NCBI GenBank assembly: GCA_963749915.1
Contig: CAVVOP010000022.1
Span: forward strand, 224,001 to 288,000
Source: an uncultured cyanobacterium
GTDB lineage: Bacteria > Cyanobacteriota > Cyanobacteriia > Cyanobacteriales > Cyanobacteriaceae
DNA: 64,000 bases
Direction: 5' to 3'
Below are positions 2,486 to 38,544 of the stretch, in pieces. The notes beneath the pieces were generated by a model. That model saw nothing but the letters and a program-made list of their open reading frames with translations, searched no databases and was not told where the DNA came from. A program made the position numbers and the translations under genes. Numbering within the stretch: the first letter of the stretch is position 1; the number at the start of each line of letters is the position of its first letter.

Positions 2486-3151
2486 GTGGGATTATCACAT
2501 CAAATAATTGGCGATGGTAGTCAACTACAAAAACAAACAAGTAAAGTGGCCCAAGATGTGTTAAGAATGGGAGCATTAGTGGAGGAGTCGTTTCGATATT
2601 CTCATCAGGCCTTATTTGAAGGTCAATTAGAGTTGGTGGCGATTATTAAAGCAAAAGATCGGGAAATCGATCGCTATTATCGAGAAATTGAAATGCACTG
2701 TGGCAGTATTTTAACTTTACAAGCACCAGTAGCTCAAGATTTGAGGATACTGAGTGCTTTTATGCAACTTGTGCGAGATTTAGAAAGAATTGGAGATTAT
2801 GCTCAAGATTTAGGGGAAATAGCCATTAAACTGGCACTTTATACCCCTCATTCCTGTATGCCTGATTTAGCTATTATGTCGGAACAAGCACAGATAATGT
2901 TAGCGAAAACTATGGTAGCTTTAAGTGAGTTAGATCGTGAAGCAGGAGAGAAAATCAAACTTTTAGATGATACTGTTGATTCCGCTTATGAAAGTCTTTA
3001 TAAAACTTTAGCTTATCAAAGTGATGTAAAAGGAGTAGTTGAACCGATTATATTACTTGCCCTAGCAATTCGTCACCTAGAAAGAATGGCAGATCATGCA
3101 ACCAATATAGCCCAAAGAGTATCATATATCGTCACGGGGCGGCGCAATTGA
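2486..3151 (+). CDS. phoU: phosphate signalling protein PhoU
   Basis: LQAPVAQDLR, DLERIGDYA and HLERMADHATNIA repeats; GTG start at 2486 follows a GGAGG RBS (ORF track starts at 2456). Confidence 0.95.
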   Translation: MGLSHQIIGDGSQLQKQTSKVAQDVLRMGALVEESFRYSHQALFEGQLELVAIIKAKDREIDRYYREIEMHCGSILTLQAPVAQDLRILSAFMQLVRDLERIGDYAQDLGEIAIKLALYTPHSCMPDLAIMSEQAQIMLAKTMVALSELDREAGEKIKLLDDTVDSAYESLYKTLAYQSDVKGVVEPIILLALAIRHLERMADHATNIAQRVSYIVTGRRN

Positions 3152-3185
3152 CGATGAACAATTAATTATTAACTACCCACTGTTA

Positions 3186-3923
3186 ATGTTCGATTTAAAA
3201 AATAATGCCAGAATTGGAACTTTTTATGGTGTCAGCGTTGGTACAGGCGATCCAGAATTAATTACGGTAAAAGGTTTAAAAATCTTACAAAATACGAGAA
3301 TTATCGCTTTTCCGGCAGGCATTAATCATAAAAAGGGTGTGGCACAAACCATTATTGGAGAATATTTACAACCCCACCAAAAAAAACTCTCCTTATCTTT
3401 TCCCTATACGTTGTCTCAAGAAACTCTTTCCCAAGCTTGGCATTCTGTCAGTATGGAAGTTTGGCAATATTTACGAAAGGGTGAGGATGTGGCTTTTGCC
3501 TGTGAGGGAGATATTAGTTTTTACAGTACTTTTACCTATGTTGCCCTAACCCTGCAAAAAATATGCTCTGCCATTCAAATTGTGAGGATTCCGGGGGTTT
3601 CTTCACCAATGGCGGCGGCCTCGGCTTTAAGTCTGCCATTGACAATGCAAGAGGAAAAATTAGCTATTTTACCTGCACTTTATTCTATCCAAGAGTTAGA
3701 AAATACTTTGGATTGGGCGGACGTTGTGGTGTTAATGAAAGTGGCTTCTGTTTATAACCAAGTATGGAATATTTTGGCAAAAAGAAATTTATGGGATTGT
3801 GCTTATTTGGTAGAAAAAGCGACTAATAATTCCGAAAAAATTTATACTTCTTTAGAAAATTACCCTCAATTAAAACTAAGTTATTTTTCTATCTTAATTA
3901 TTCGTTTTAACAAATTATCTTAG
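3186..3923 (+). CDS. cobI: precorrin-2 C20-methyltransferase
   Basis: GVSVGTGDPELITVKG, EGDISFYSTF, IPGVSS, YFS motifs. Confidence 0.9.
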   Translation: MFDLKNNARIGTFYGVSVGTGDPELITVKGLKILQNTRIIAFPAGINHKKGVAQTIIGEYLQPHQKKLSLSFPYTLSQETLSQAWHSVSMEVWQYLRKGEDVAFACEGDISFYSTFTYVALTLQKICSAIQIVRIPGVSSPMAAASALSLPLTMQEEKLAILPALYSIQELENTLDWADVVVLMKVASVYNQVWNILAKRNLWDCAYLVEKATNNSEKIYTSLENYPQLKLSYFSILIIRFNKLS

Positions 3924-4210: not shown

Positions 4211-4510
4211 ATGTGGGAAAAAAAACAAGATTTAGAATTATTATTATCCTCTTTTAGGGCTTTATCAGATCCTATTAGACTGGAAATATTGGAAATATTA
4301 GGAAATAAAGAAATGTGTGTAGGAGATATTCATACATTATTAAAAATAAAACAACCTAAAGCCTCTTTTCATCTAAGAATATTAAAAGAATCAGGTTTTG
4401 TGAATATTAAACGTCAGGGGCGTTACATCTACTATAGTTTAAATCAAGATCATTTCACTAGATTGAGGGAATATTTAGATAAATATCGAGAAAAACCTGT
4501 TAATCAATAA
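4211..4510 (+). CDS. ArsR/SmtB-family transcriptional regulator
   Basis: FRALSDPIRLEIL, EMCVGDI, SFHLRILKESG, RQGRYIYYSL. Confidence 0.9.
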   Translation: MWEKKQDLELLLSSFRALSDPIRLEILEILGNKEMCVGDIHTLLKIKQPKASFHLRILKESGFVNIKRQGRYIYYSLNQDHFTRLREYLDKYREKPVNQ

Positions 4511-4604
4511 CTGTCATCTTGAAGATATTCGAGCACAAAATTCTACCGATTTTTAGGTTAAACTGCAATATTATCTAAAAAGTCAATTCAAGGATTAACA
4601 GAAG

Positions 4605-5492
4605 ATGTCACGTCAATTAGCTTTTCTCGGTTTAGGGGTAATGGGTAAAGCCATGTATGTAAATTTGCTGAAAAATGGTTGCTCTATTAAAGCATGGAAT
4701 AGAACCACAAATAGTCTTTCTCTTCAATCATTATCCTCGGAATTTCAGTTAAATGTTGTGGATAGTATTTCCGAAGCGGTTAGGGAAGCGGATATAATTT
4801 TTACCTGTTTAGGGGATGTGCCGGATGTAGAGGCGGTAATTTTTAACTCTCAAGGGGTGATGGAGTTTGCACAATCCAATAGTTTAATTGTGGATTTTAG
4901 CACCATTGGCTCACAAGGGGCTCAAAGAATTGCTGAAAGATTACAAACTAAAAATATTCGTTTTTTAGATGCACCTGTTTCTGGGGGTGACATTGGTGCC
5001 CAACAAGGCACTTTAACTATTATGGTAGGGGGACACTTCGCGGATTTTCAAGAATGTGAACCTTACTTTAACATTTTAGGCAAAAATATTACTTATTGTG
5101 GTTCGGTAGGTAGCGGTCAAGGGGTGAAATTATGTAATCAAGTATTAGCCTCACTACATATGATTGGAGTATGTGAAGCCTTAAAATTAGCCGAAAAACA
5201 AGGTATTGATCCTAACCTGATAGTCAAAGTTTGTAGTACGGGAGCGGCTGGTTCTTGGGCTTTAAGTAATTTAGCACCGAAAATTATTGATTCTGACTAT
5301 AATCCGGGTTTTATGATTAAACATATTTTGAAGGATTTACGGTTAGTAGAAGAAACTCTGGGGAAAAATAGTCATTTACCCGGTGTGGAATTGGCACAAA
5401 AATTATTTGAGATAGCGGCACAATTAAATGAAGGTGAGGGTTATAATCTCGGCACTCAAGCTATGATTAAAAGTTATTCTTCCATATTATAA
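4605..5492 (+). CDS. NAD(P)-dependent beta-hydroxyacid dehydrogenase (3-hydroxyisobutyrate/tartronate semialdehyde reductase family)
   Basis: GLGVMG, DAPVSGG, KLCNQ motifs. Confidence 0.9.
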   Translation: MSRQLAFLGLGVMGKAMYVNLLKNGCSIKAWNRTTNSLSLQSLSSEFQLNVVDSISEAVREADIIFTCLGDVPDVEAVIFNSQGVMEFAQSNSLIVDFSTIGSQGAQRIAERLQTKNIRFLDAPVSGGDIGAQQGTLTIMVGGHFADFQECEPYFNILGKNITYCGSVGSGQGVKLCNQVLASLHMIGVCEALKLAEKQGIDPNLIVKVCSTGAAGSWALSNLAPKIIDSDYNPGFMIKHILKDLRLVEETLGKNSHLPGVELAQKLFEIAAQLNEGEGYNLGTQAMIKSYSSIL

Positions 5493-7380: not shown

Positions 7381-8481
7381 CTATTTACCTACCATAAAAT
7401 TAGCGTAACTTAACTCATTAATACTGTTCCATTTGACGATGGCATCTTTAAAGGCTTTCCAAGGTTCATAAATAGCCTTAAAATTAGCATCCTTAGCTGC
7501 GTTACTTTCATAGATATCTAAAGCTACTTTTTGGGCTTCAGTCATAATATCTTGAGGATAAGCCACCAATTTTGTACCCCCTTGAATAATAGTTGTTAAA
7601 GATTTTTGATTGAGGAAATTATATTGTGCTAGCATATTGAGATTCGCTTCCTTTGCCGCTGAGATAAACATATTTTGGTATTCTGAAGGCAGTTTTTCCC
7701 ACGCCAATTTATTCACTAATACATCTAGAGTCGGTCCGGGTTCCCACCATCCGGGATAATAATAATATTGTGCCGCTTTATTTAAACCCAGTTTTTGATC
7801 ATCATAAGGTCCTACCCATTCTGCCGCATCAATAGCACCCCGATCAAGCGCCAAGAAAATTTCCCCGCCGGGTAACACTTGCACATTTACCCCTAGTTTC
7901 GACATAACTTCACTCCCTAATCCAGGAATGCGCATTTTTAAGCCTTTCAAATCAGCAAGGGATTTTACCTCTTTTTTAAACCATCCCCCCATCTGTGCCC
8001 CTGTATTCCCAGCAGGAAAGTTGATAATATTAAAGTCGGCGTAAACTTTTTGCATGGCTTCTAATCCCCCCCCATGATATAACCATGCGTTTTGTTGTTC
8101 TGCCGTTAAGCCAAAAGGCACGGATGTCCCAAAAGCGAGGGCAGGGTTTTTGCCAATATAATAATAACTTGCCGTGTGTCCACACTCAACGGTGCCATTT
8201 TGTACCGTGTCTAACACTTCTAACCCCGGTACAATTTCCCCTGCGGCATAGGGAGTGACGGTGAATTTTCCGCCACTCATGGCTTTAAGGCGATCGCATA
8301 CTGTTTGTGCACCTCCAAAGATAGTATCTAAAGATTTAGGCCAACTGGTCACCATACGCCATTTGATTTCAGGGAGACTGTTAGCGGTGACGGTGGAATT
8401 ATTTTGACTTTGACAAGAGACTAAAGTGGCAGAAGTTACAGCGCTAATACCAGCACTGGTTAAAAATTGTCTTCTTTGCAT
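7381..8481 (-). CDS. TRAP transporter substrate-binding protein (DctP/TakP type), Tat lipoprotein
   Basis: RRQFL twin-arginine signal, LVSC lipobox, GNTGAQMGGWF, KMRIPG, EWVGPYDD. Confidence 0.9.
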   Translation of the reverse strand: MQRRQFLTSAGISAVTSATLVSCQSQNNSTVTANSLPEIKWRMVTSWPKSLDTIFGGAQTVCDRLKAMSGGKFTVTPYAAGEIVPGLEVLDTVQNGTVECGHTASYYYIGKNPALAFGTSVPFGLTAEQQNAWLYHGGGLEAMQKVYADFNIINFPAGNTGAQMGGWFKKEVKSLADLKGLKMRIPGLGSEVMSKLGVNVQVLPGGEIFLALDRGAIDAAEWVGPYDDQKLGLNKAAQYYYYPGWWEPGPTLDVLVNKLAWEKLPSEYQNMFISAAKEANLNMLAQYNFLNQKSLTTIIQGGTKLVAYPQDIMTEAQKVALDIYESNAAKDANFKAIYEPWKAFKDAIVKWNSINELSYANFMVGK

Positions 8482-8679
8482 TAATTTTCTTTTCTATATA
8501 TGGATAAATTTTTCTGAATTTAACTATTAATTTAACTATTTAATGTTTTTTTAAAAGACGCAAAAAAATAAGAGTTTTTTATTTTTAAGCTTATTTTCTA
8601 CTAAAAATATTCTACAGGAATTAAGGTGTGCAGTGCGTCTTTCTACATAAATTGTTAAATATTTAATTACTTATTTCTA

Positions 8680-8714
8680 ATTACACCTCGTTCACCGATT
8701 TCAAAATTAGTTAG
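8680..8714 (+). repeat. left terminal inverted repeat
   Basis: ATTACACCTCGTTCACCGATTTCAAAATTAGTTAG. Confidence 0.8.
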
Positions 8715-8746
8715 GAAAATTAGGTATAGTTCTGCTTCTCCTAGTA

Positions 8747-8818
8747 AATTAACGCCCAAGCTCACCGGCGGCAATCGAGCGCAGCGGAATTGCCGTCCGG
8801 TGCAGCGCCTTGTTATGT
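8747..8818 (-). other. integron attC recombination site (72 bp)
   Basis: minus strand ACATAAC-AAGGC-GCTGCACC-...-GGTGAGC-TTGGGC-GTTAATT: R'', 5-bp spacer, L'' with one extra G, palindromic core, L', R'; the gene's TAA stop lies inside R''. Confidence 0.9.
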
Positions 8819-10876
8819 GTTTTCTGCATATTTTATTGATAACTCATCTTCAAAATCGAAGGTTGTCAGAGCTTGCTTAATTCTGTCAAATTTGCCCATA
8901 TTGTCAATGTTTGCTTCAATGAAATAAGTGTCATTTATTGGAACTGCTTGTCTTAATCCCTTTTCTCTTGGATTCTTTGTCAAACTAATTCGCTCACCCA
9001 AGTCGGATGTGAAAAATGTTTCAGGTTGAAGCTCAAAAAGCTGTTTAAAGACTTCCACATAAAGTTTCGCTACTTGATTAACTTCAATTTTTTGGTCAAA
9101 GAAAATGGCATACTCCAATTTTTTATGTTTTGGATCGTCAGCTTCAAATATATTTAGTTCTCCATTGTCTCCGTTTGTTTCAATCTCTATTTGAGGGTAT
9201 TCCCATATTTTCAAGAATCGTTCTGAAATCAAGTCAAAGCGTCTTTCAATTTCTGTCTTGTCCCATTTGTCGAGGATTGAAAGGTATTTGTTAATCCATA
9301 ATCGGCTGTCTTTATATCCCGCTCCGTCTAAGTCTCTTTTATGAATAAATGGTTTATTTCCGAGTTTGCTATTATTACCCGATAAAGTCAGATTGCCAAT
9401 GGTGTTCAGATAATTTTCTTTGATAAAGATGTATTCGTCATTGCCCAATTCCATTTTCCATTTTGGGTCAGGATTCTGAGGAAAGATGTGTTCAATTGTA
9501 ATATCTGGATTTCCTTCAATGGCTACTCTCTCTCTATTTTCATAGTTCTCAAGTCTTTCAAGTAGATAAATCCTATTCTTAGATTTAATGTTGTAAACGT
9601 CTTTAACCTTTAGAGCGTCAATAACTTCTGCATTCTTTGGAAAACGCTGAACACCTGACCTTTGTAGTAATGATTTTTGAATTGAATAAAGATAATTGTC
9701 CGACTCTACTTTGTCGTAGAGGCTCATGAATATCTTGTTCAGGGCATTAGTTGGTAAACCAAGAATAAATCTTCTCCATGTAAATGACTGGATTAAGTCA
9801 AGGACTTTTAAAAAAGTGGGTTTATCAATAATTGATGAAACAAAATCATCATATACTTTCATCAGGAAAGGGAAAGCAACATTAATCTCAAGGCGGTTGA
9901 TATACTCCAATTGTAGGCGTATATCTTTGTCAGGCTCATTTTTGGGATTAATCAATTTGTTATAGTGTTTGACCAGTCCTTTTATTCCTGTCAGATTACT
10001 TTCAAGTTCGTCTATTGATGTTGTCGGGTATTTTGTTTTAAACTCAAGATACACTTTTCCCTTATTGGGTATTTTTTTGTTCTCTAAAGTCAGATAGTCA
10101 CGGATATAGTCGGAAACTCGGCTAACATTAAGAGTTTCGTCCTTTGCAAGCTTTTCAATGACTTCCCAATAGTTTTGATAAATGTTGTTTTGGTCTCTGC
10201 GGTTCAGACCCATCAAGATATAATTTCGGATTAAGTCTGCCTGAGACAATTCTAAGCCTGTTGAATTAAGGCTTTCAAAAATTCTTTGAGGATCGTCTTT
10301 TTCTCTGTCAAGTGAAATTTCAACAAACATGAGCTTTGAAAGACCTTTCAAGATGAATTGATAATTTTCTTCAGTAATTCTTCCCTTGAAGTAATTGAAG
10401 TTGTCAACGAGCTTGGAGAAATCAGGGAAATCTTCATTATCGTCACTTCTTAAAAGATATTTCAACGCCTTATCATTATTCTCAGTAGGTCTTAGTTTCA
10501 GCTTTTCTTCTTCTGGGACAAATTTGTTTATTAGGTATGTTTCGCTTATTTCATTTACAAGCTCTTCGTCTTTTAATTCTTTAGCAAGCCTGTGAAGAAC
10601 CAAGTAGATGAGTGTTAGTGTTGTCAATCTTTGTTGACCGTCAATCACCGTCAATTCTTTAATTCTTGAAGCTGTGTAAACATCATCATGAACATAAACT
10701 ATGCTACCGATAAAGTGAGCATTCATTTCGTTATTTGTGCCGACTTCAAGAATGTCGTCAAGTAGCTGTTTACATTGCCCTATTGACCAATCATAATTTC
10801 TTTGGTAAACAGGAATTACGAACTGAGTCTTATTTGATGATAAAAAGTCTTCTACTTTGGTTTCGTTTGCTTTCAA
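8813..10876 (-). CDS. GmrSD-family (DUF262 + DUF1524/HNH) putative modification-dependent restriction endonuclease with an extra C-terminal domain
   Basis: IPVYQRNYDW, IDGQQRLTT, IFESLNSTG (GmrS); TIEHIFPQ, IGNLTL..NSKLGN (GmrD HNH); TTG start at 10876 after an AGGA RBS, downstream of the cassette core site. Confidence 0.9.
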   Translation of the reverse strand: MKANETKVEDFLSSNKTQFVIPVYQRNYDWSIGQCKQLLDDILEVGTNNEMNAHFIGSIVYVHDDVYTASRIKELTVIDGQQRLTTLTLIYLVLHRLAKELKDEELVNEISETYLINKFVPEEEKLKLRPTENNDKALKYLLRSDDNEDFPDFSKLVDNFNYFKGRITEENYQFILKGLSKLMFVEISLDREKDDPQRIFESLNSTGLELSQADLIRNYILMGLNRRDQNNIYQNYWEVIEKLAKDETLNVSRVSDYIRDYLTLENKKIPNKGKVYLEFKTKYPTTSIDELESNLTGIKGLVKHYNKLINPKNEPDKDIRLQLEYINRLEINVAFPFLMKVYDDFVSSIIDKPTFLKVLDLIQSFTWRRFILGLPTNALNKIFMSLYDKVESDNYLYSIQKSLLQRSGVQRFPKNAEVIDALKVKDVYNIKSKNRIYLLERLENYENRERVAIEGNPDITIEHIFPQNPDPKWKMELGNDEYIFIKENYLNTIGNLTLSGNNSKLGNKPFIHKRDLDGAGYKDSRLWINKYLSILDKWDKTEIERRFDLISERFLKIWEYPQIEIETNGDNGELNIFEADDPKHKKLEYAIFFDQKIEVNQVAKLYVEVFKQLFELQPETFFTSDLGERISLTKNPREKGLRQAVPINDTYFIEANIDNMGKFDRIKQALTTFDFEDELSIKYAENT

Positions 10877-10896
10877 TTCTTTAATTCCTGTTTTCG

Positions 10897-10905
10897 ACAC
10901 ATAAC
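10897..10905 (-). other. cassette 5' core (R') site G/TTATGTGT
   Basis: exact 9-bp complement of ACACATAAC at the attC R'' end (8812-8820). Confidence 0.8.
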
Positions 10906-10939
10906 TTATAATTGTACCGCAAGTGCAGTATAACACTTT

Positions 10940-10952
10940 CAGGACTTACGCA
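10940..10952 (+). repeat. CAGGACTTACGCA IS-end-like motif
   Basis: motif recalled from cyanobacterial IS/MITE termini; no partner copy seen in the window. Confidence 0.4.
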
Positions 10953-11139
10953 AGAGAAAAAAAAGAAATAGCTATAACCCTTGTCAGTAGGTTTAAAGGC
11001 AAGACAGCGATCGTTATAACCTTCCATTGAGATTAGTTAATGGTAAAATTAAGGAGAAAATAGTTTTCTAATCTGATTTTAGAATATCTTTTATTTATTG
11101 TGTTAGACGGCGTTAAAAAGTTCGATGACAAACTATTAT

Positions 11140-11174
11140 CTAATTAATTTTGAAATCGGCGAACGGGGCGTAAT
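11140..11174 (-). repeat. right terminal inverted repeat
   Basis: reverse complement ATTACGCCCCGTTCGCCGATTTCAAAATTAATTAG; ends 2 nt from the trpA stop codon. Confidence 0.8.
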
Positions 11175-11176
11175 CA

Positions 11177-11974
11177 CTAATTATTGATCGCTTCTCTGAG
11201 ACTATGACATAATATTGCTAAATCTTTTAAGCCTTCTTCGGGGCTAGTGTTAGCTAATTTTTTGACAAAGGCACTACCAACAATTACGCCATCTGCCCCC
11301 CATTGTTTCATCTGTATTGCTTGAGAAGGTTCAGAAATGCCAAAACCAACTCCTATGGGTTTATCGGTGACGGTTTTTAACTTACTGATTAAATCTTCAA
11401 CTCGACTTTCTACCTGCAATCGCATCCCAGTAACACCAGTAACACTAACTAAATAGATAAAACCTTGAGATTTTTCAGCAATATGTTGAATTCTATCCAA
11501 GGGTGAAGTTGGTGCAACTAATAAAGTAACCTCTATACCGCATTTTTCGGCAATTTGTAAGAAAGTTTCCGCCTCCTCTAAAGGTAAATCGGGAACAACT
11601 AAACCCTTAACCCCTACATTAGCAATAGTTTTCATGAAATTTTCTACTCCCCGATAAAAAATAGGATTGTAGTAAGTAAATAAAATAATGGGAATAGTAA
11701 TTTCATCTTGAAGGTTTTTGACAATCTCAAGAACATCATTTAAACAGACACCATTTTTTAAAGCACGAGTAGCCGCTGCTTGAATTACAGGGCCATCGGC
11801 AAGAGGATCAGAATAAGGCACACCTAATTCAATCATATCTGCACCATTTTGAGCCAAAATTTTGATAGCTTTAACGGTGGTTTCTAAATCAGGATCTCCC
11901 GCGGTTATAAAAGGAATTAAAGCACATTTATTTTCTTTTTTTAGTTGTTCAAAACACTGAGAAATTGAGGTCAT
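11177..11974 (-). CDS. trpA: tryptophan synthase alpha subunit
   Basis: [32 protein letters not shown]. Confidence 0.97.
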
Positions 11975-23839: not shown

Positions 23840-25276
23840 ATGGTACTTTCTGTTACTAAAAACTCGTCTTTGTCAGATTATAAAATCTCAAAACCTAGCG
23901 ATCACTTGCCCGATAAATTATTCGGTACAGACGGTATTCGAGGCAAAGTTGGGGATTTATTAACGCCTAATTTGGCTTTACAGGCAGGGTTGGCGGCGGG
24001 TAATGTTTGGCAAGAAGAGTTTAAGGCTTCCGAGGGTGTTGTTATCATTGGGCAAGATTCCCGTAATTCTAGTGATATGTTATCAATGAACATCGCATTA
24101 GGTTTGACCTCTCTAGGTTTGGATGTGTGGAATATTGGTTTATGCCCTACTCCTTGTGTAGCTTACTTAACAAAGACAACAGAAGCTATGGGAGGGATCA
24201 TGATTTCTGCCAGTCATAACCCTCCAGAAGATAACGGAATCAAGTTTTTTGGTTCTGATGGTACTAAGTTAGATCAATTGTTGACCAATGCCATCGAAAA
24301 GACTCTCCGCAAAAATATCGACAATGAAATTAGCTTAAACGGAGGTAAATGCGGTGAAAATAGTCAACAACACCATTTACTAAAAAATTATGCTCATTTT
24401 TTAAGAATGTCCCTCCCTCCTGATTTAGACTTTGGGGGAATGCGTATTGTCTTAGATTTGGCCTGGGGGGCATCTGTAGAACTTGCCCCTGTTCTATTTG
24501 AGGCTTTAGGGGCGGAGGTTATTTCTTTACATAATCGACCAGATGGCGATCGCATCAACGTTGATTGTGGTTCAACTCATTTAGAGAAATTGCAACAAGC
24601 AGTACAAAAATACGAGGCGAATATCGGATTTGCCTTTGACGGTGATGCAGATAGAGTTATGGCAGTAGATGCTAAAGGTCGTGTTGTTTGCGGTGACTAT
24701 ATTCTTTATTTATGGGGTAAATACTTAAAAGAGCACAATTTGTTACCTGATAACTTATTAGTAACTACAGTTATGGCAAATTTAGGCTTTGAATTAGCAT
24801 GGCAAAAATTAGGTGGTAAATTCTTGCGCACGGCGGTTGGTGATCAATATGTTCAAGCTGCCATGTGGGAAACGGGTGCTATGCTGGGGGGTGAACAATC
24901 AGGACATATTCTCTGTCATCATCATCATTTTTCGGGGGATGGCATTCAAACGGCTTTACAATTAACGGCCTTAGTCAGACAGCAGGGTAATTGTTTAGTG
25001 TCTTTAGTAAATAATAGCTTTATTCGGTATCCCCAAGTATTGAAGAATGTAAGGGTAGAAAACCAAGAAAAACGCTTAAATTGGCAGGATTGCTACCCAT
25101 TACAACGGGCGATCGCCAAGGCGGAAGAAGCCATGGGTCGTGAAGGTAGAGTCCTAGTAAGGGCATCAGGTACAGAGCCCTTAATTCGGGTAATGGTAGA
25201 AGCAGAAAACGAGAATTTAGTCAACTATTGGATAGATTATTTAGTTAGAGTTGTCGAACAAAACTTCAACAACTAA
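23840..25276 (+). CDS. glmM: phosphoglucosamine mutase
   Basis: [43 protein letters not shown]. Confidence 0.95.
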
Positions 25277-25284
25277 CAATTAAC

Positions 25285-25460
25285 AATTAGGGTTAGGTTG
25301 ATACTAAATCTCTTCCGGCACTCTGGCAAGGGTTTGACAGAGGCTAAACTACAAAATAATCTGATTTTTAGATCAAATACAGCGACAATGGTTGAGTAAA
25401 ATATTAACTCAGGCATGGAAAAGTTTACGGCAATAGACTTTTTCGCCAGAATCCAGTTTT
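25285..25460 (-). ncRNA. ssrS: probable 6S RNA (boundaries approximate)
   Basis: minus strand folds into a long rod: UAAACUUUUCC/GGAAGAGAUUUA closing stem, CCUGAG motif, central bubble, terminal stem with G-U pairs valid only on this strand; resembles cyanobacterial 6S as recalled. Confidence 0.65.
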
Positions 25461-25461
25461 T

Positions 25462-26736
25462 ATGGGAATCACAGTGAGTAATAGGCAACTTTTTCAACAG
25501 GTAAGAATTTTAGATCCTTTTTCGGCGATGGACAAAGTTAGTGATGTATTATTGGATCAGGGCATCATTACGGAAATTAGCGATCACATTGTTACAGAAA
25601 AAGATCAAACTCGATTAATAGATGGTAAGGGTTTAATTTTAGCACCCGGATTGGTAGATTTGTATAGTAGAAGTGGTGAGCCAGGTTACGAAGAAAGAGA
25701 AACCCTAAAAAGTTTGACAGAAGCTTCACAGGTAGGAGGTTTTACCCGCTTAGCTATTTTACCGAATACTAATCCCATCATCGATAATCCTAGTATTGTT
25801 ACATGGATAAAGCAAAAAACAACTCATTGCAAGACGAAATTTTATCTTTGGGGGGGATTAACTCAAAATTTAGAGGGGATTGCTATTGCAGAGTTAGCTG
25901 ATTTAGCAGAATCGGGAGTGGTTGGTTTCACGGATAATCATCCCCATAGTAATTTACAATTGGTGAGAAAATTATTAGAGTATGCCCAACCTTTTAATTT
26001 ACCCGTGGCTTTGGTACCGACAAATGTGCAATTAAGAGGGAATGGAGTTGTGAGGGAAAGTCGTACTTCTATTCGTCTCGGTTTAGTTGGAAATCCAGAA
26101 ATTGCGGAAACCGTTGCCATTGCCTCTATTTTAGAAATTGTTTCCCTAACGAAAACTCCTGTTCATTTAATGCGCATCTCTACCGCAAGGGGGGCACAAT
26201 TAATTAAACAAGCCAAAGAGAGTAATTTACCCGTTACCGCTAGTGTCAATTGGCATCATTTACTGTTAAACACTGAAATTGTCGCTAGTTATAACCCCAA
26301 TGTAAAATTTGAGCCTCCTTTAGGTACGGAAATCGATCGACTTGGTTTAGTAAAGGCTATTAAGGATAATATCATTGACGCCATCGCAGTGGATCATACC
26401 CCTTATACTTATGAAGAAAAAACTGTCGCCTTTGCACAAGCACCAACAGGAGCGATAGGATTAGAGTTAGCCTTACCGTTACTATGGCATAATCTCGTCA
26501 TCACAGGAGAATTGTCACCGTTGGAATTATGGCGCAGTTTGAGTGTTAATCCTTTAAAATGTTTAAATCAAGATCTTATTAAACTACAAGTAGGGCAACC
26601 TGCGGAGTTAACCTTGTTCTCTCCCCAACAGACATGGCAAGTTACCCCTTCTCAACTGAAATCTTTATCTTTTAATACTTATTGGTTGGATAAACAATTA
26701 AAAGGGAAAATAGTGCCCCTAGAAATAGGGTGTTGA
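25462..26736 (+). CDS. pyrC: dihydroorotase (cyanobacterial PyrC-like)
   Basis: APGLVDL, GGFT, PNTNP, AVDHTP, EEK; start may be GTG at 25474. Confidence 0.85.
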   Translation: MGITVSNRQLFQQVRILDPFSAMDKVSDVLLDQGIITEISDHIVTEKDQTRLIDGKGLILAPGLVDLYSRSGEPGYEERETLKSLTEASQVGGFTRLAILPNTNPIIDNPSIVTWIKQKTTHCKTKFYLWGGLTQNLEGIAIAELADLAESGVVGFTDNHPHSNLQLVRKLLEYAQPFNLPVALVPTNVQLRGNGVVRESRTSIRLGLVGNPEIAETVAIASILEIVSLTKTPVHLMRISTARGAQLIKQAKESNLPVTASVNWHHLLLNTEIVASYNPNVKFEPPLGTEIDRLGLVKAIKDNIIDAIAVDHTPYTYEEKTVAFAQAPTGAIGLELALPLLWHNLVITGELSPLELWRSLSVNPLKCLNQDLIKLQVGQPAELTLFSPQQTWQVTPSQLKSLSFNTYWLDKQLKGKIVPLEIGC

Positions 26737-26962
26737 TTTTTTACACCATAGTTCATACTGTTTTTATTACCAATGGCTTAGAATTATTTGTTTATTTAAA
26801 TATTATAGTTACTAATCTTCAAAGTGGTTTTATAATGAGTGGGAAACCTGACTTGAAGGGGTAACCATCAGCCCAATGAGGCACTGAAGTGGGCAGGATG
26901 AAAATCCAAAAAAGTTTAGACAATTTGTTGTCGCTTTAAGAAATAAATAAAAGGAGTAGAAA

Positions 26963-27667
26963 ATGTCAACAGTTTTTGATTTAATGGCGAAACCTTTGGG
27001 AAAAATACTAGAAGAAGCTGGGTTAATAAATCAAGGACAGTCACAGGTAGTTTTAATGGAGCAAAATATTTATGATAATTTAAAATTTGGTGAGATTTTG
27101 GTTCTTCATGGTTGGTTAAAGCAAGAAACAGCAGATTTTTTTGCGGAAACAATGCGACAACTAATCAAAAAAGAAACTTTTGATCTGCAAATTGGCAAGT
27201 TTTTTAAACAAGCAGGTTTATTATCAGAACAAGATATTCAGAGTATTTTAAATGAACAAAAAAACACAGGCATAAAATTTGGTTCTATAGCTGTATTGAA
27301 AGGATTTATAAAAGAACAAACGTTAGATTTTTTTCTCAAATACTTTAGCGGGACTCATGAAAAAAGCGATCTTCAGTATAAAGATAAGGACACCTTAACA
27401 GAAAGAAGATTATCTCTTCAGAATCAAAATAAATCATACCTATCTGATTACTACGATCTGGCTATGGCTTATTTTGCCAAAGCTAGTTCCGTAAGCACTA
27501 AATTAGAAAAGCTCAAAATATTGCAAGATTTTTTGAATTTGTACCACAACATTGAAAGACTGCAAATGCAAAATGATCCCGATATTGGAAAATTACCGAA
27601 AGAAGCACAACATCGGCTTGATCAGGTTTATGCCTTGGTCTTAGCGGAATTGGCTAAACTCCGGTAA
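26963..27667 (+). CDS. protein with MshEN-like repeats (putative c-di-GMP binding)
   Basis: PLGKILEEAGLI..Q, KFGEILVLHGWL, QIGKFFKQAGLL..Q, KFGSIAVLKGFI; AAGGAG RBS. Confidence 0.65.
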   Translation: MSTVFDLMAKPLGKILEEAGLINQGQSQVVLMEQNIYDNLKFGEILVLHGWLKQETADFFAETMRQLIKKETFDLQIGKFFKQAGLLSEQDIQSILNEQKNTGIKFGSIAVLKGFIKEQTLDFFLKYFSGTHEKSDLQYKDKDTLTERRLSLQNQNKSYLSDYYDLAMAYFAKASSVSTKLEKLKILQDFLNLYHNIERLQMQNDPDIGKLPKEAQHRLDQVYALVLAELAKLR

Positions 27668-27917
27668 CTGTAATTGCTTGAATGGGAAATATTATCATCC
27701 CAGCAATTTTTATCTTGTAGAAGTACAAAAGTAGCCTAAAAATTTTTACAGGGGACCGGAACTAAATTTCAGGCATTGCACCATTGGCGAACGATATACA
27801 ATTTTTTACGGAGTTCAAATAAATATTTATCTCGAGGGATCGCCTAATGTTAAAACTTTTATCAAAAAATTACGATCTAATCCCACAGATTTTTGGTTCA
27901 CGACTAGTATTTTTTAA

Positions 27918-27998
27918 TGCGGATGGCGAGACTCGAACTCGCAAGGCAAAGCCACACGCCCCTCAAGCGTGCGCGTATACCAATTCCGCCACATCCGC
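27918..27998 (-). tRNA. tRNA-Leu(GAG)
   Basis: cloverleaf GCGGATG...CACGC TTGAGGG GCGTG, long variable arm, GTTCGA. Confidence 0.97.
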
Positions 27999-28085
27999 AA
28001 AGGCTCACAACCCAGTATTATAGCTTATTGTTCTTGAATCAGTCAAGTATAATAAGGAAAAGTTTTTACGAGATGGCTGTCAGTA

Positions 28086-29225
28086 ATGTTAAATAAATTT
28101 ATCGGTTTATCCTTGTTGAGTCTCAGTTCTAATTTTGTATTTAATAGTCATTCATTGGCTCAATCTATACCTTTAAAACCTGTTGATAATGTGCCGATCA
28201 AAATAGTTGATGAACAATTATTTACCCGTGACAAACAAGCATTAATACGGGGGATCGATCACAGTTTGCGTTATCTCAATACTGATAAGGCGAAAACTGT
28301 TTATCAAAATTATACAATGCCCGAGTTTAGTCGTGAACGGGTGATAGCTTCCTTAAAGCGTTTTCGTCAATTATTAGTTAATTCTACCAGTGCGGCACAG
28401 TTACAAAGGGCGGTAGACAAAGAATTTCGGTTTTATCAATCGGTGGGTTATGACGATCAGGGAACGGTATCTTTCACTGGTTATTTTCAGCCTGTTTATA
28501 ATGCAAGTCGTCAAAAAACGGCTGTTTATCGTTATCCTTTGTACCGTAAACCGAATGACTTTGATTCTTGGCAAAATCCCCACCCTAGCAGGTCAGATTT
28601 AGAGGGTAAAGATGGGTTAGGTAATAATAGTATTTTAAGGGGTAATGAGTTAGTTTGGTTTAGTGATCGCTTACAAGCCTATTTGGTGCAGATTCAAGGT
28701 TCAGCAAAATTGAAACTCACGGATGGTAAAATTATGACCATCGGTTATAGTGGTGCAACAGATTATCCTTATAGTAGCTTGGGGAAGGAGTTAATCAAAG
28801 ACGGGAAAATACCAGCAGACCAGATGAGTCTGCCCCGTTTAATAGCTTATTTAGAAAGTAATCCCGATGAATTAGACATCTATTTGCCTCGCAATAATCG
28901 TTTTGTTTTCTTCAAGGAAACAGGAGGAAAACCAGCCACGGGTAGTTTAAATGTTCCCGTTACCGATGAAAGATCGATTGCTACAGATAAGTCAATTATG
29001 CCTCCGGGGGCGTTGGCTTTAATTTATACACGTATTCCCCAACTAGATAACCAAAAACGGCTTGTTACTCCTAACGTTAGCCGTTATGTCTTAGATCAAG
29101 ATACAGGAAGTGCCATTAAGGGTCCGGGTAGAGTAGATATATTTTTCGGTACGGGAGACATGGCGAAAACTAAAGCGGGTTTGGTAGATTGGACAGGAGA
29201 TTTATATTACTTACTCCTTAAGTAA
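28086..29225 (+). CDS. mltA: lytic murein transglycosylase A
   Basis: FTGYFQP, QIQGS, SIATD, QDTGSAIKGPGRVDIFFG. Confidence 0.93.
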   Translation: MLNKFIGLSLLSLSSNFVFNSHSLAQSIPLKPVDNVPIKIVDEQLFTRDKQALIRGIDHSLRYLNTDKAKTVYQNYTMPEFSRERVIASLKRFRQLLVNSTSAAQLQRAVDKEFRFYQSVGYDDQGTVSFTGYFQPVYNASRQKTAVYRYPLYRKPNDFDSWQNPHPSRSDLEGKDGLGNNSILRGNELVWFSDRLQAYLVQIQGSAKLKLTDGKIMTIGYSGATDYPYSSLGKELIKDGKIPADQMSLPRLIAYLESNPDELDIYLPRNNRFVFFKETGGKPATGSLNVPVTDERSIATDKSIMPPGALALIYTRIPQLDNQKRLVTPNVSRYVLDQDTGSAIKGPGRVDIFFGTGDMAKTKAGLVDWTGDLYYLLLK

Positions 29226-29248
29226 AAAAGGCGATAAACAATTAACAA

Positions 29249-30256
29249 TTATTTACTTATTTGTTCGGTATTATTGGGAGATTGTCCGTTATTACCGCTA
29301 AAAGATTGAAATAGGGTAAATCCTGCTATCGCCACTACAGCAACAGCACCAACAATTCCGGCTATTTTTAATTTACCTTTATTATTGGTTTCTGGGACAG
29401 AATCTTCTTCGGCGGGATCTTCAGGATGGGCGTAACGATGAAAAAGAAAATCTAGGGCATAGTTGCGTAATTCGTAGTAACGAGGATCTTCAGTTATTTG
29501 CACACGATTACGGGGACGAGAAAAGGGAATTTCGAGAATTTCGCCAATTTTTGCCTTGGGACCGTTGGTCATCATTACAAGGCGATCGGCTAAAAACAAT
29601 GCTTCATCTATATCGTGGGTGATCATCATAACGGTTAATTGATGATTGCGCCAAATTTCTAATAATTCCTCTTGCAATTCTTCTTTGGTGATGGCATCTA
29701 ACGCCCCAAAAGGTTCATCTAAAATCAAGACTTCTGGACGAATAGCCAACGCACGGGCGATGGCCACCCTTTGTTTCATCCCCCCAGATAATTGATTAGG
29801 TTTCTTTTTTGCCGCTTCCGTCAAGCCAACCATGGCCAAATGTTCTTCCACAATGGTGAGTTTTTCTTGTTGATTTTTGTTTGGATAGACAGCATTAACC
29901 GCAAGAGAAACATTGTCAAAGGCTGTTTTCCAGGGCAATAAACAGTAATTCTGAAATACCATCATGCGATCAGGACCGGGTTCGGCGATAATTTTATCTT
30001 TAAGTTTAACTGTACCAGTGGTGGGCTGATTAAAACCGGAAATCATGTTTAAAAGGGTAGATTTACCACAGCCGGAATGCCCTATGACGCACACAAATTC
30101 ATTTTCTTTAACAGTCAAATTGACATCATCTAAAACTGTGTAATCGCCGTTGGGGGTTTCGTAAACCTTGGAGACTTGATCCACAGTTAAAAAGGCAGTT
30201 TTTTCGATGGTAGAAGTATTATTTTCAGTATTCATTAAACTTTGCATAATTTTCAA
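29249..30256 (-). CDS. nrtD: nitrate ABC transporter ATPase
   Basis: [16 protein letters not shown]; last gene of the operon; C-terminal TM tail. Confidence 0.9.
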   Translation of the reverse strand: MKIMQSLMNTENNTSTIEKTAFLTVDQVSKVYETPNGDYTVLDDVNLTVKENEFVCVIGHSGCGKSTLLNMISGFNQPTTGTVKLKDKIIAEPGPDRMMVFQNYCLLPWKTAFDNVSLAVNAVYPNKNQQEKLTIVEEHLAMVGLTEAAKKKPNQLSGGMKQRVAIARALAIRPEVLILDEPFGALDAITKEELQEELLEIWRNHQLTVMMITHDIDEALFLADRLVMMTNGPKAKIGEILEIPFSRPRNRVQITEDPRYYELRNYALDFLFHRYAHPEDPAEEDSVPETNNKGKLKIAGIVGAVAVVAIAGFTLFQSFSGNNGQSPNNTEQISK

Positions 30257-30365
30257 AATAGTGGTTTGTTAATAATTATTTTTATTCCTAAATCTTGGCC
30301 CCCAAATCCACAACTTTGGCGAATTTAATTATATTTCTCTGCCAGAATTGGGAGTGAAGGGAGGA

Positions 30366-32366
30366 TTATTTAGTGGCTAAATTATCAATCAAGATCTCGG
30401 ATACTTGATAATCACGGCGGATAGTGAATCTTTCTAAGTAGCCGATGGGATCATCGGGATTGAAAACCATTTTGTCAAACAGTGGAAAACTATGGCGATC
30501 GGGCTCAACATCCGATAAACCTAATTGCCTACAAGCCTCACCGTATAAATCCGGACGACGCACTCTTTCCAAAATTTCGACCCAGTTACGAGGGAAAGGT
30601 GTATAACCCCAACGGGCTAATTGAGTTAACACCCATAATCCTTCAACCCTACCCGGAGAATTGGCTTGATCTACATAGAATTGATTAAACCTTAATAAAG
30701 ATTCGGTTTTTGTGCCGTAATTATAGGAATCGACAAAACCAGGACGGATATATTTAGCATCAACACCGACATATTCAGGACGGGCAAGTAACTCGACAAT
30801 TTCTGCACGGTTACGGTAATCGTCACAATATTCACAAGCCTCAATCAAAGCCTTAACTAAGGCAATGTGAGTTCTGGGGTATTTTTCTACCCAATCTTCT
30901 TTTACTCCTAAAATTTTCTCAGGGTGTCCTGACCAAATATCGATGTCTGTAGTAATCACGAAACCAAGATCTTCCTGCACTGCATGAGAATTCCAAGGTT
31001 CACCAACACAGTAACCGTCAATGTTACCAGCCTTGAGATTTGCCACCATTTGTGGCGGTGGAATTACCGTTAAACTGACGTCTTGATCGGGATCAATGCC
31101 CCCTGATGCTAACCAGTAACGCAATAGCAAATTGTGCATAGAAGCAGGGTGGACCATGCCAAAAGTGTGGACTTTATCAGGAGTTCGGGCGATCGCTTCC
31201 TTCAATTCCTGAAGGTTTGTAACTCCCATTTCTTGGAATTCTTTACTTAAAGTAATAGCGTTACCGTTGCGACTTAGCACCATTGAAGTAATCATGGGAA
31301 TCGAAGGGTTCCCCCCTGCACCCAAAGTCATACTTAAAGGCATTCCTGCCACCATTTGTGCGGCATCTAAACGTCCTTCGGCGACGCCTCTTGCTAATTC
31401 TTTCCATGATGGTTCGCGGACTAATTTCACTTGTTCTAAACCATGTTCTTGGAAAAATCCCTTCTCTTTGGCAATCATTAAAGGTGCACAGTCAGTTAAG
31501 GGTATGAAACCAATATCAAGGTTAATTTTTTCTAAGCCATTACCCGCCACTGCTTCTTTATTAAAGATGATTTGTCCGACTTTTTTGGATCGCTTCTGTT
31601 GATTGAGGAAATAAACCATTTCGTTTCGCAGAACATAGTAACTGGGATTATTTACCACTTCTAACCTTTGTCTTGGACGGGGGAACGGTACTTCTAAAAC
31701 TTGCCCGATATGAGCCTCAGGACCGGTGGTTAACATGACGATGCGATCCGATAACAATAAGGCCTCATCCACATCATGGGTTACCATTATGCAAGTAACA
31801 TGATTTTCTTGAACAATCCTCATTAAATTTTCTTGTAAATTTCCTCTGGTTAAGGCATCTAATGCCCCAAAAGGTTCATCTAAGAGTAGTACTTTGGGTT
31901 TTGTTGCCAAGGCACGGGCGATGGCAACCCGTTGTTTCATACCTCCAGACAGTTCCCCCGGACGTTTATGGGCAGCGTGTTTTAAGCCGACAATACCGAT
32001 ATTTTCTTCCACAATGGCTTTTCTTTCCGCTTCGGGAAAATGACGCATCACACGGTTAACCCCTAGAGCGATATTTTGTCGAACCGTCAACCAAGGTAAT
32101 AAAGAATAGTTTTGAAAGACTACCATGCGATCGGGACCCGGTTCGGTAACTTCTTTCCCCTCAAGGATAATACCACCGTGAGTTGCATTAGATAAACCGG
32201 CAACCATGTTTAAAAGAGTAGATTTACCGCAACCAGAATGACCAATTAAAGAGATAAATTGTCCCTTGTCGATCTTCAAATTAATATTGCGTAAAGCTAT
32301 ATATTCTCCCCCATTAGCAAGGGGAAAAATCTTATCAACGTGATCAATTTCAATAAAACTAGGCAT
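30366..32366 (-). CDS. nrtC: nitrate ABC transporter ATPase with NrtA-like C-terminal domain
   Basis: ABC domain plus [11 protein letters not shown]...CVGEPWN domain. Confidence 0.92.
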
Positions 32367-32407
32367 GATTTCAATAGTAAATAATTAATAGTTAATGATT
32401 AAGGTGA

Positions 32408-32600
32408 GACTTGCAAGTGGGGGAAGAGGGGGAAGATGGGGAAGATTCCTCAACCAAAGAATAGGCTTTTCACTCCCTTGTCTACTTTCCTTCCTCTCTT
32501 GGTCAGCATTCCCTTGCGACTGTCGTCGTCGCGGGGTCTGACCGCTTGTCCTCCTTGTCTTGCCAACACCTAATTATAAAAAACCTACCCTTGTAAGAGA
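32408..32600. repeat. MITE-like intergenic repeat with a nested GC-rich hairpin
   Basis: purine/pyrimidine repeat arms (GGGGAAGA.../...CTTGTC); hairpin GGTCAG...CTGACC at 32501-32543. Confidence 0.5.
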
Positions 32601-32622
32601 AGGGGCAGAGGACAGGAGCTTA

Positions 32623-33447
32623 TTACTTCTGCTCACCGGGAACAACTAAATCAGCAATAAAAGTCATTAATCTATCTAATAACAATCCCACGACACCAAC
32701 GTAAACCAAGGCAATAATAATTTCACTCATCAAAGAACTATTATAGGCATCCCAAATAAAGAAGCCAATTCCCACTCCACCAATGAGCATTTCTGCGGCA
32801 ACAATAGCTAACCAAGATAGGCCAATGCCAATTCTTAACCCCGTAAAAATATATGGAACAGCTGAGGGAAACAAGATGTTAAAAAAGTATTCTACCTTTG
32901 ATAGTTTTAAAACCTTAGAAACATTATTGTAGTCCTGGGGAATTTTTTGTACCCCAACTGTTGTATTGATAACAATAGGCCAAATGGCAGTAATAAAAAT
33001 AACAAAAATAGCAGAGGGTTCAGCCTCTTGAAATGCAGCTAAGGCGATTGGTAACCATGCTAGAGGAGGAATAGTACGCAGTACCTGAAAAATGGGGTCT
33101 AGTGCATCATAAATTAAGCTATTTGTACCAATTAAAATACCTAAACTTACACCAACAATAGCGGCTAAAGAAAAGCCAATGGCCACCCTTGTGAGACTGG
33201 CAAAAACTTGGAGTCCCAACCCTTTGTCTGTGCCACCATTATCAAAAAAGGGATTAATGATGAGAGGATAAGTATCTTGAAAAACCTTTACAGGACCAGG
33301 AAGATTGGAGTTTTCTCCTCCACAAATAATTTGCCAAATTACTAAAAGCACAATCAATGCCACTACAGGGCGAATAACTTTTTTAGAATAAAGAAAACTA
33401 AGAGGATTTTTCTGAGGGCGAAATCGTAAATTGGTAGAATTAGCCAT
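32623..33447 (-). CDS. nrtB: nitrate ABC transporter permease
   Basis: NPFFDNGGTDKGLG, LRTIPPLAWLP, IVAAEM. Confidence 0.92.
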   Translation of the reverse strand: MANSTNLRFRPQKNPLSFLYSKKVIRPVVALIVLLVIWQIICGGENSNLPGPVKVFQDTYPLIINPFFDNGGTDKGLGLQVFASLTRVAIGFSLAAIVGVSLGILIGTNSLIYDALDPIFQVLRTIPPLAWLPIALAAFQEAEPSAIFVIFITAIWPIVINTTVGVQKIPQDYNNVSKVLKLSKVEYFFNILFPSAVPYIFTGLRIGIGLSWLAIVAAEMLIGGVGIGFFIWDAYNSSLMSEIIIALVYVGVVGLLLDRLMTFIADLVVPGEQK

Positions 33448-33543
33448 AGGAATATATGTCAAGTATTTAGCTGTTTGAGAAAATAGAGTTGATAAGTTAC
33501 CCTATCTTTTATTAAAAGAATTGAGAGTAACACCGTTAATTGA

Positions 33544-34854: not shown

Positions 34855-34935
34855 AGATTAATAAGGTTTCCTAATTTATTTGAACATTTGTTAAGTTTGA
34901 TGCACCTATTTAAAACCCTTAGAAGGGTTCGATTT

Positions 34936-34949
34936 GTACCTTTAGTCAC
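34936..34949 (-). promoter_or_regulatory. NtcA-binding site upstream of nrtA
   Basis: minus strand GTG-N8-TAC with T/A flanks, 22 nt before a TTAAAT -10-like box. Confidence 0.55.
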
Positions 34950-35386
34950 AAAATTTGATTAATTTGCAAAAAATACATTTCAAAGATTTATACTGTGCAT
35001 TACCCTTTATGTTCTGGCTCTTCTCCTGTTTTCCTGTCTTTTATCCCACATTCCCCAGGTTAAAAAGAGAAAGCTAAAAAGTATTAAGTATTAAGTATAT
35101 ATAGCAATCCTAGCCCAACCGTCGATGCCCGCGCGATCGTCAAGCAAATCCGCTAAATCCACCCACGAATTGATGAAGATGGTCGTTTTGTTAGACGCTG
35201 TTAAATCAGCAGTCTTTTTAAGGGTGTATGATGTAAAAGTTTAGTTAAAAATTTTGAAAGAACTCTAGCTCATGCTATAGTAAAGCTTAATCTCTGTTTT
35301 GTCAGACTGATGCTGAAAAGATTGGCGAGTGCATAGATACCAAATGGGTTCTATATATAAGTTAAGTTAGAAATAATTCTACACCT

Positions 35387-36145: not shown

Positions 36146-36173
36146 ATCCTTTTGAGCTTTAAGGATTTCAAAA

Positions 36174-36245
36174 ATGTCAGCTACAGAAACACAGTGGTTT
36201 CGCGTTCTCGAGCCTGATGAATTAGCCGATGTCAATTTAATTTGA
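36174..36245 (+). pseudogene. truncated 5' gene fragment (possibly Rieske-domain N-terminus)
   Basis: AAGGA RBS, MSATETQWFRVLEPDELAD then a stop. Confidence 0.35.
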
Positions 36246-36266
36246 CCGGTTTCCTGAATGAGGGTA

Positions 36267-36294
36267 TTAGGGGCTTAAGATCTTAAGCCCCTAA
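36267..36294. repeat. perfect 28-bp palindrome
   Basis: TTAGGGGCTTAAGA|TCTTAAGCCCCTAA. Confidence 0.9.
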
Positions 36295-36331
36295 AGCCTT
36301 AGATTATTTCAGTTCAGATTCAGAAAATAAC

Positions 36332-38541: not shown

Positions 38542-38544
38542 TAA

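Follow-up and report, generated by a model that had tools for sequence, protein, structure and literature searches.

A promoterless GmrSD-type integron cassette, likely inserted outside any integron platform, in a cyanobacterial chromosome

Integron cassettes are known to leave integrons for ordinary genomic sites: insertions consisting of a single attC recombination site with no integrase gene (intI), attI site or second attC nearby (single attC sites lacking an integron integrase, SALINs), the attG type of target and its GWT consensus have been described (bioRxiv 10.1101/2022.09.11.507474). Defence systems in cassette form have been reported as the bacteriophage resistance integron cassettes (BRiCs) of mobile integrons (bioRxiv 10.1101/2024.07.02.601719) and from the Vibrio superintegron (bioRxiv 10.1101/2024.07.02.601686). 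For Cyanobacteria, integrons, intI pseudogenes and groups of clustered attC sites without an integron integrase (CALINs) have been described (PMC4889954), and a Cyanobacteria-specific attC model has been reported (PMC8352920). The Type IV modification-dependent nucleases with DUF262 and DUF1524 domains have been noted for frequent horizontal transfer, and integron-type recombinase domains have been noted near GmrSD genes (PMC4619093). In this study, a cassette carrying a GmrSD-type restriction gene was analyzed in the genome of an uncultured cyanobacterium of the family Cyanobacteriaceae (GCA_963749915.1). The window, i.e., the whole stretch of DNA analyzed, comprises 64,000 nucleotides (contig CAVVOP010000022.1, positions 224,001 to 288,000, forward strand); its genome is labeled G000 and its contig C22, and other G and L numbers are our labels for genomes and loci. 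The locus very probably represents a complete, promoterless GmrSD cassette that was inserted by an integron integrase at a GTT triplet in the spacer between trpA and dctP, outside any integron platform. It is a clean natural example of a known route of gene spread and not a new kind of element, since both SALIN insertion and cassettes with defence genes have been published before.

The anatomy of the cassette is described on the minus strand (Table 1). The R'' motif ACATAAC (8818-8812) contains the stop codon (TAA, 8815-8813) of the GmrSD gene, whose open frame comprises 707 codons (8813-10936). It is followed by a 5-nt spacer, AAGGC (8811-8807), and by L'' GCTGCACC (8806-8799). Past L'' the site continues with GG, an unpaired A (8796), CGGCAAT, a 13-nt loop (8788-8776), ATTGCCG, CCGGTG, and AGC, with CGGCAAT/ATTGCCG as the GC-rich stem. 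L' GGTGAGC (8766-8760), a 6-nt spacer, TTGGGC (8759-8754), and R' GTT (8753-8751) complete the site. For strand choice, extrahelical bases that belong to the AAC arm of the top strand, with 6 bp from first to last, are stated to be required (PMC5027507). Here both unpaired bases, G 8803 within L'' and A 8796, belong to that arm of the coding (top) strand; the 6 bp between them form the stem CACCGG, and the central spacers are 5 and 6 nt long. ACACATAAC (8820-8812) recurs as its exact reverse complement, GTTATGTGT (10905-10897), at the other end of the gene, where it stops 20 nt ahead of the TTG start (10876-10874). The junctions read TATAA-G|TT on the left and GGGC-G|TTAATT on the right. A first-pass annotation, made from the letters of the DNA, had described this series of elements (R'', a 5-bp spacer, L'' with one extra G, palindrome, L', GTT) as well as the complementary 5' end about 20 nt before the start codon, and every element was recovered. 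It had also called the downstream core GTTAATT non-canonical; the sequence is correct, but it is no oddity, because the bases following G|TT, here AATT (8750-8747), are derived from the target.

A fold of the bottom strand had been proposed as a check; DNA folding of the site gave a hairpin only weakly to modestly better than shuffled sequences (z -2.1 to -2.35). Significance had to rest on comparison. When 40 relatives were searched with 5 kb around the locus, three isolated palindrome-only matches (64-75 nt, 81-88% identity) were obtained in two other genomes of the order; aligned with the window attC, they have AAC and GTT in place, and their stem changes are compensatory. From these four sites a covariance model (R1) was built. 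It detected the attC family in 49 of 151 genomes belonging to the order, with the window's genome counted, and no site of it in the six other genomes of the window's family. A second model (R2) was built from 33 related sites. In their alignment, which was fitted to the model and thereby favours structure, 93.8% of cells pair, 16 of 20 stem pairs are changed on both sides, and none of 500 shuffles reaches any of these measures; the AAC/GTT pairing is retained in 32-33 of the 33 sites. The window attC scores 100 bits with R1 and 76 bits with R2 (E 3.7e-16, filters off), and its class is shared among cyanobacteria at 81-95% identity.

Sites of this family are found next to integron integrases. 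One genome of the order (G031) encodes two of them (490 and 460 bits vs an NCBIfam cut-off of 265) and has 20 R2 matches, several in tandem on short contigs. The 460-bit IntI lies at 4290-5231 (plus strand) of its contig C13, with R2 matches at 2554-2647 and 401-493 on the opposite strand, which is the canonical divergent layout. A plasmid of Kovacikia minuta likewise has an annotated integron integrase and, upstream on the opposite strand, five R2 matches. As an outside control, R2 (filters off) recovered all six class 1 attC sites in two integron loci, located behind blaVIM-2, aac(6')-IIc, blaVIM-24 (twice), aadA1, and aac(6')-31, and nothing else at E up to 1. The palindrome is therefore the attC of a site family that accompanies IntI. 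An Rfam scan of the window at gathering thresholds reported two tRNAs and no family at the palindrome, and blastn found no second copy of the palindrome in the genome. The Kovacikia plasmid region (pB 24078-40980, L152) is in itself a complete cyanobacterial integron; annotated genes, e.g., for a DNA cytosine methyltransferase and for an AAA ATPase (2.1 kb), lie among its five attC matches.

The boundaries of the cassette were established from other copies. Eighty loci encoding relatives at 70-97% protein identity were fetched; they are mostly from Bacteroidota, and the remaining bins are Chloroflexota, Thermodesulfobacteriota, Calditrichota, Acidobacteriota, Verrucomicrobiota, Pseudomonadota, Balneolota, Bacillota, and two archaeal groups. 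Among these loci R2 gave a match only in L111, from a metagenome-assembled genome of Vicingaceae (Bacteroidota), in which attC sites at 2380-2482 and 4555-4649 enclose the GmrSD gene and a third attC is present at 565-658. Common to L111 and the window are GTTATGTG..GAAAACAGGAA and the R''-plus-spacer sequence ACACATAACAAGGCGC. Their identity begins at GTTAT, and blastn homology covers window positions 10905-8805; upstream of GTT there is no kinship, this being the previous attC in L111 and host spacer in the window. Homology beginning exactly at GTT agrees with the crossover at G|TT that had been proposed earlier. The other loci have longer attC-like hairpins of other classes. Because the attC classes of other cassette-borne copies are out of reach of R2, a rule-based closure test was used, in which a 7-mer ending in AAC near the stop codon must have its exact reverse complement within 150 nt upstream of the start. 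Among 83 sequences examined, 63 were evaluable (20 were left unevaluated through crude picking of open reading frames, ORFs), and the R''/GTTxxxx signature was present in 21 of the 63, namely 20 of 60 fetched loci and the window; the positive L106, with AAAAAAC, is likely to be spurious.

Contigs from four metagenome runs, one marine and three from sediment, were also compared with the window. The marine run covers bins 8703-10924 at 90-95% likeness with no flank. In the marine and the three sediment runs, contigs with only the attC core leave the window for sequence of no kinship at 8749-8751 and 8799-8817. The loss of similarity at 8749-8751 and at 8815-8817 gives the cassette boundaries independent support. 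In addition, the sediment runs contain low-depth contigs identical to the window, flanks included, which are not independent evidence because these runs may be the sample of origin. The segment 8753-10904 is one complete integron cassette with exact boundaries. A larger moving unit was considered as well, i.e., a transposase-free element resembling a miniature inverted-repeat transposable element, bounded by the 35-bp terminal inverted repeats at 8680-11174 and carrying the cassette as cargo. The two arms are complementary at 31 of 35 positions (E ~1e-5 against the whole genome), and the window spacer without the cassette measures 542 bp, compared with ~245 bp in the same-family genome G007, an excess of roughly the size of such an element. 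Yet the genome contains a single pair of the repeat, no target-site duplication is visible, and other genomes share the cassette from G|TT to attC but never the repeat-bounded segment. A 26-nt core of the repeat (up to three mismatches) was found in 2 of 401 genomes of the order, and the non-window matches belong to a different 48-nt motif. Movement of such an element is thus improbable. The 48-nt small-hairpin motif, AACTCAyCGTTCGCCyATTTGAAAATGAGTTAG..., occurs at L149 1494-1541 (G000:C11:~25389) and L146 1494-1541 (G364), and is 90% conserved between these two distant genomes of the order.

Within the window no match to the integron-integrase model, which also responds to other tyrosine recombinases, and no second attC (R2, filters off; next best match E 1.6) were detected, as the first-pass annotation had stated. 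The whole genome encodes no integron integrase above the cut-off (best score 62 bits). A 300-bp intI remnant is located at C22:156941-157243, ~75 kb left of the cassette on the same contig. It keeps model positions 1-41, 192-234, and 293-313, the IntI-specific segment included, and retains the N-terminus and the C-terminal Tyr motif around internal deletions (with its platform, L064 6650-7244 = C22:156650-157243). Divergent from the remnant is a conserved attI-like platform, in which the motifs CCAGAAAGTTTC and GGAAAGTTTC are repeated, and then the junction ...ATAATAAATA|GTTAGGC. The platform also heads cassettes at C13 (~3870), C21:498.3 kb (~498324), and C21:501.2 kb (~501212-501284), and partial copies are present at C21:212.9 kb (~212922) and C8:876.9 kb (~876886). 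These orphan platforms have up to ~150 nt and exact CCAGAAAGTTTC repeats in common, and three of them directly precede a junction of the form ...ATAATAnATA|GTTA; the 12-mer platform motif has eight exact copies in the genome against ~0.6 expected by our own estimate. At least four further strong attC sites are found at other loci. The cassette can therefore be called solitary, as had been done, at its locus but not in its genome, and the proposed search for intI, while returning no intact gene, revealed a genome that is not free of integron traces.

The platform next to the intI remnant has repeated GAAACTTTCTGG motifs, and past its junction, ATAAATA|GTTAGGC, there follow P-loop ATPase ORFs that are broken. 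At C22:153806-153873 on the minus strand (L064 3807-3874; R2 21.6 bits, E 0.009) there is an attC-like site, degraded and AT-enriched, with an R'' of ACACATAAC, identical to that of the GmrSD cassette. The 2.85-kb cassette on C13 (L059 914-3800) ends in a strong attC (R2 53 bits) and is a second defence-type cassette, its cargo being a broken Type I/IIG-like restriction-modification gene with HSDR_N, N6_Mtase, and Methylase_S spread over three ORFs. The cargo of small attC clusters at C21:499.3-502.2 kb (L061 2779-5697) and on C23 (L062 3631-5301) comprises genes of unknown function and those for a PIN-domain and a prokaryotic YEATS-domain protein; the recombinase encoded divergently upstream of the C23 cluster is XerC/D-like and is not IntI.

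With several orphan platforms in the genome, each heading cassettes, and a decayed intI, the GmrSD cassette could also be the last survivor of an array or orphan attI platform that decayed at this place (a CALIN-type remnant), and the A/T-rich 10 nt before its junction do resemble the attI junctions (...ATAATAnATA|GTTA). This explanation is unlikely on three counts: the 272 nt upstream of the cassette contain no CCAGAAAGTTTC or GGAAAGTTTC motif within two mismatches on either strand, the window holds no other attC, and the gene order ndhL-DUF3007-trpA-dctP is common to G007, in which the ~245-bp gap between trpA and dctP has no cassette and nothing else in it. The absence at the junction of the attI motif, by which most other cassettes of this genome are headed, this adjacency in G007, and the target triplet GTT, which lies in genomic DNA and fits the GWT consensus of attG, all agree with the single SALIN-like insertion at a secondary site that had been suggested. 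The locus has a single attC and no intI, attI, or second attC nearby, as SALINs do. A search for the empty site in relatives had been recommended; G007 has a cassette-free spacer, but the trpA-dctP spacers of the window and the relatives do not align beyond the coding ends, and no exact empty site was found. In G007 the DctP homologue next to trpA (L021 2542-3649) consists of two ORFs (2542-3234 and 3257-3649), which a frameshift or an assembly error may have separated.

For the insertion at the trpA-dctP spacer by an integron integrase, the following course can be proposed. The bottom strand of the circular cassette (the plus strand of the window) would fold into the attC hairpin, in which an unpaired C and an unpaired T, separated by 6 bp, are on the arm that faces the AAC triplet. 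IntI would then carry out a single-strand exchange of attC with a double-stranded GWT target of the attG type, and replication would resolve the junction. The product would have G|TTATGTGT at the left and attC followed by G|TTAATT at the right; the target before insertion would have read TATAAGTTAATTT, within an uninterrupted spacer ...TATAAGTTAATTTACTAGG... The integrase may have come from the integron of the 300-bp intI remnant ~75 kb away or from a transient element, and later loss of integrase activity would have fixed the cassette in place. That it is now fixed is suggested by the lack of an intact intI.

Some observations weigh against this reading. No intact intI is present in the genome, so the integrase step is only inferred; no base-exact empty site was found among the relatives, and in same-genus genomes trpA and dctP are far apart. 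The 2.15-kb cassette is long, and long cassettes are said to recombine poorly (bioRxiv 10.1101/2024.07.02.601686). R'' matches the inverse core RYYYAAC at only six of seven positions (the core R' GTT is present), and the unpaired L'' base of the bottom strand is C, where G is described as usual (PMC5027507); a functional blaVIM attC has the identical letter at that model position. Both covariance models were seeded from the window attC's own relatives. The 35-bp inverted repeat encloses the cassette together with ~320 bp of spacer, and its meaning is unexplained. Finally, the gene has a TTG start and no promoter-like site was called for it.

The protein is assigned to its family by its Pfam domains (GmrSD_N PF03235, 133 bits, 1.8e-38; GmrSD_C PF07510, 84.6 bits, 7.5e-24). 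A DUF262 (GmrS-like) and a DUF1524 (GmrD-like His-Me finger) domain are fused in one intact protein. Its translation has the DGQQR and EH...N...N motifs, and both can be recognized when it is aligned to the solved DUF262 protein 9jfl (E 2.4e-11), which was matched in the PDB comparison along with SspE. Both domains and their motifs bear out the earlier assignment as a GmrSD-type nuclease. PADLOC returned the models Orf5, HEC-06, SspE, and mREase_IV, the best of which, named only "Orf5," adds no function; no family was assigned by NCBIfam. By analogy to GmrSD/BrxU-type enzymes, the protein is predicted to cut modified (e.g., hydroxymethylated or glucosylated) phage DNA. Compared with all seven aligned homologues, the gene has one extra T (10874-10877), which turns ATG into TTG; the TTG (10876) aligns with the ATG of the homologues, and one marine metagenome contig is without the extra T. 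This start may lower translation.

The nearest DNA relative is L066, a 2409-bp cassette-sized contig binned to Clostridiales (94.4% over 2067 nt; 97% amino acid identity over residues 1-686), followed by a Balneolaceae contig at 84%. The copies within the same family, at 71% (G007) and 67% (G013) DNA identity, have an ATG start, upstream regions of their own, and no palindrome after the stop codon. In a FastTree phylogeny of 62 protein sequences, which is unrooted and omits the G007 copy because its ORF is broken, the window protein clusters with L066 and L067 (support 98), within a set in which Bacteroidota predominate; no direction of transfer and no donor are claimed. Both the identities, 94% to a copy of another phylum vs 67-71% to the attC-less copies of the same family, and the phylogeny, which had been suggested as a check, agree with the foreign origin first proposed, and by these comparisons the gene has a foreign affinity. 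The opposite possibility, i.e., a native and vertically inherited gene with a terminator or host repeat behind it and a chance match at its 5' end, would accommodate the GC content of the gene (0.34, near the 0.37 of the window) and the attC-less homologues in the same family. It is extremely improbable given the 94% identity to a copy binned to another phylum, and the gene is unmatched in five of six same-genus genomes, the sixth (G005) having only a diverged copy (66-68%) elsewhere. Nor does the palindrome behave as such an explanation would have it: no T-tract terminator was called, sites of its family belong to arrays linked to IntI, and class 1 attC sites are recovered by its model.

The cassette lies downstream of ndhL, DUF3007, and trpA on the same strand and is followed by a DctP-family binding protein gene and two sulphur-transport-like genes (Table 1). 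NdhL and DUF3007 at the locus, as well as XisH/XisI elsewhere on the contig, fit a cyanobacterium. In a promoter and terminator scan of 8300-11400, nothing promoter-like was called near the junction and nothing terminator-like, with counts no higher than in shuffles; the -10-like TACAAT, located 6 nt upstream of the junction, was not flagged. The GmrSD gene would be transcribed by read-through from ndhL-DUF3007-trpA, which appears possible because no terminator-like site was called, or from the weak -10-like TACAAT.

Table 1. Positions of the cassette, its parts and its neighbours in the window.
Feature	Position	Strand	Basis or remark
Integron cassette as inserted, 2152 bp	8753..10904	-	left-junction TT to G of right-junction G|TT
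Leader, 28 nt, promoterless, AGGA ribosome-binding motif	10877..10904	-	sequence; conserved with L111
GmrSD-type Type IV restriction gene, 687 aa, TTG start	8813..10876	-	Pfam, PADLOC, PDB, homologues
attC recombination site	8747..8818	-	sequence, fold, covariance models
Left junction in host DNA, TACAATTATAA-G	10905..10916	-	includes -10-like TACAAT 10916-10911 and G of GTT target
trpA, upstream neighbour, same strand, possible read-through source	11177..11974	-	Pfam Trp_syntA 8.1e-96
DctP-family solute-binding protein gene, downstream neighbour	7381..8481	-	Pfam DctP 3.3e-61
35-bp inverted repeat, right arm	8680..8714		31/35 complementary
35-bp inverted repeat, left arm	11140..11174		begins 2 nt past trpA stop codon

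The attC classes differ among nearly identical copies of the gene. In L066 the 94%-identical gene ends (2230-2400) in an unrelated attC-like hairpin of ~130 nt with R'' ACCCAAC, and its leader is 51 nt long. This hairpin is of a type seen in Bacteroidota homologues, and the long class is present in L066, L084, and L091-L097; the window attC is of the short cyanobacterial type, and the same-family copies have none. The gene family might conceivably record the genesis of cassettes or a re-tailoring of attC to the integrase of a new host, with attC exchanged or newly attached while the gene itself hardly changed, but we offer this only tentatively. To our knowledge, such a step has never been caught in nature, and differences in attC class among near-identical genes provide a concrete starting point for asking how cassettes arise. 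The locus also represents a base-resolved natural example of cassettes leaving integrons for ordinary genomic sites, with a predicted anti-phage nuclease as cargo. The 2.1-kb GmrSD cassette circulates at 70-97% protein identity in at least 10 phyla, archaeal-binned contigs included, and is for this reason a good model for defence genes crossing deep lineages. In addition, a single genome with cassettes at orphan attI platforms and one at a bare GTT offers a natural comparison of two insertion routes.

Among known systems, the closest in cargo are the defence cassettes of mobile integrons and Vibrio. Like these, the window has a single-gene defence system in cassette form, and in both cases homologues outside integrons keep the coding region without attC. 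The window cassette is much longer than those streamlined systems and lies outside any array. The main texts on BRiCs and Vibrio cassettes name neither GmrSD nor DUF262 (bioRxiv 10.1101/2024.07.02.601719; bioRxiv 10.1101/2024.07.02.601686), and among the matches listed in a literature search for integron and GmrSD no title or abstract is about a GmrSD cassette. As in the GmrSD/BrxU/SspE family of Type IV enzymes, the protein has a GmrS-like N domain with DGQQR fused to a GmrD-like C domain with the His-Me finger motif, but it is only distantly similar in sequence to the solved members and has a C-terminal extension of ~120 aa past the Pfam domains.

The class 1 attC sites on Pseudomonas plasmids (L150 and L151; blaVIM-2/-24, aadA1, aac(6')) share with the window attC the R''/L''/L'/R' layout, the AAC/GTT triplets, spacers of 5-6 nt, and unpaired bases on the AAC arm, and the blaVIM attC also has the unpaired G on the coding strand. 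They are scored at 24-51 bits by the cyanobacterial model R2, at the correct place and on the correct strand, but are otherwise unrelated in sequence. The closest system with regard to insertion is the SALIN/attG type. The window likewise has one coding sequence and one attC with no att site or intI nearby, a GTT target that fits GWT, target-derived bases after G|TT, and an orientation that permits expression from resident transcription. SALIN and attG insertion were described from an assay in E. coli or V. cholerae, whereas the window is a natural case in a cyanobacterial chromosome; and unlike in the described case, the cargo is a 2.1-kb defence gene, and the orphan attI platforms of the same genome were left unused.

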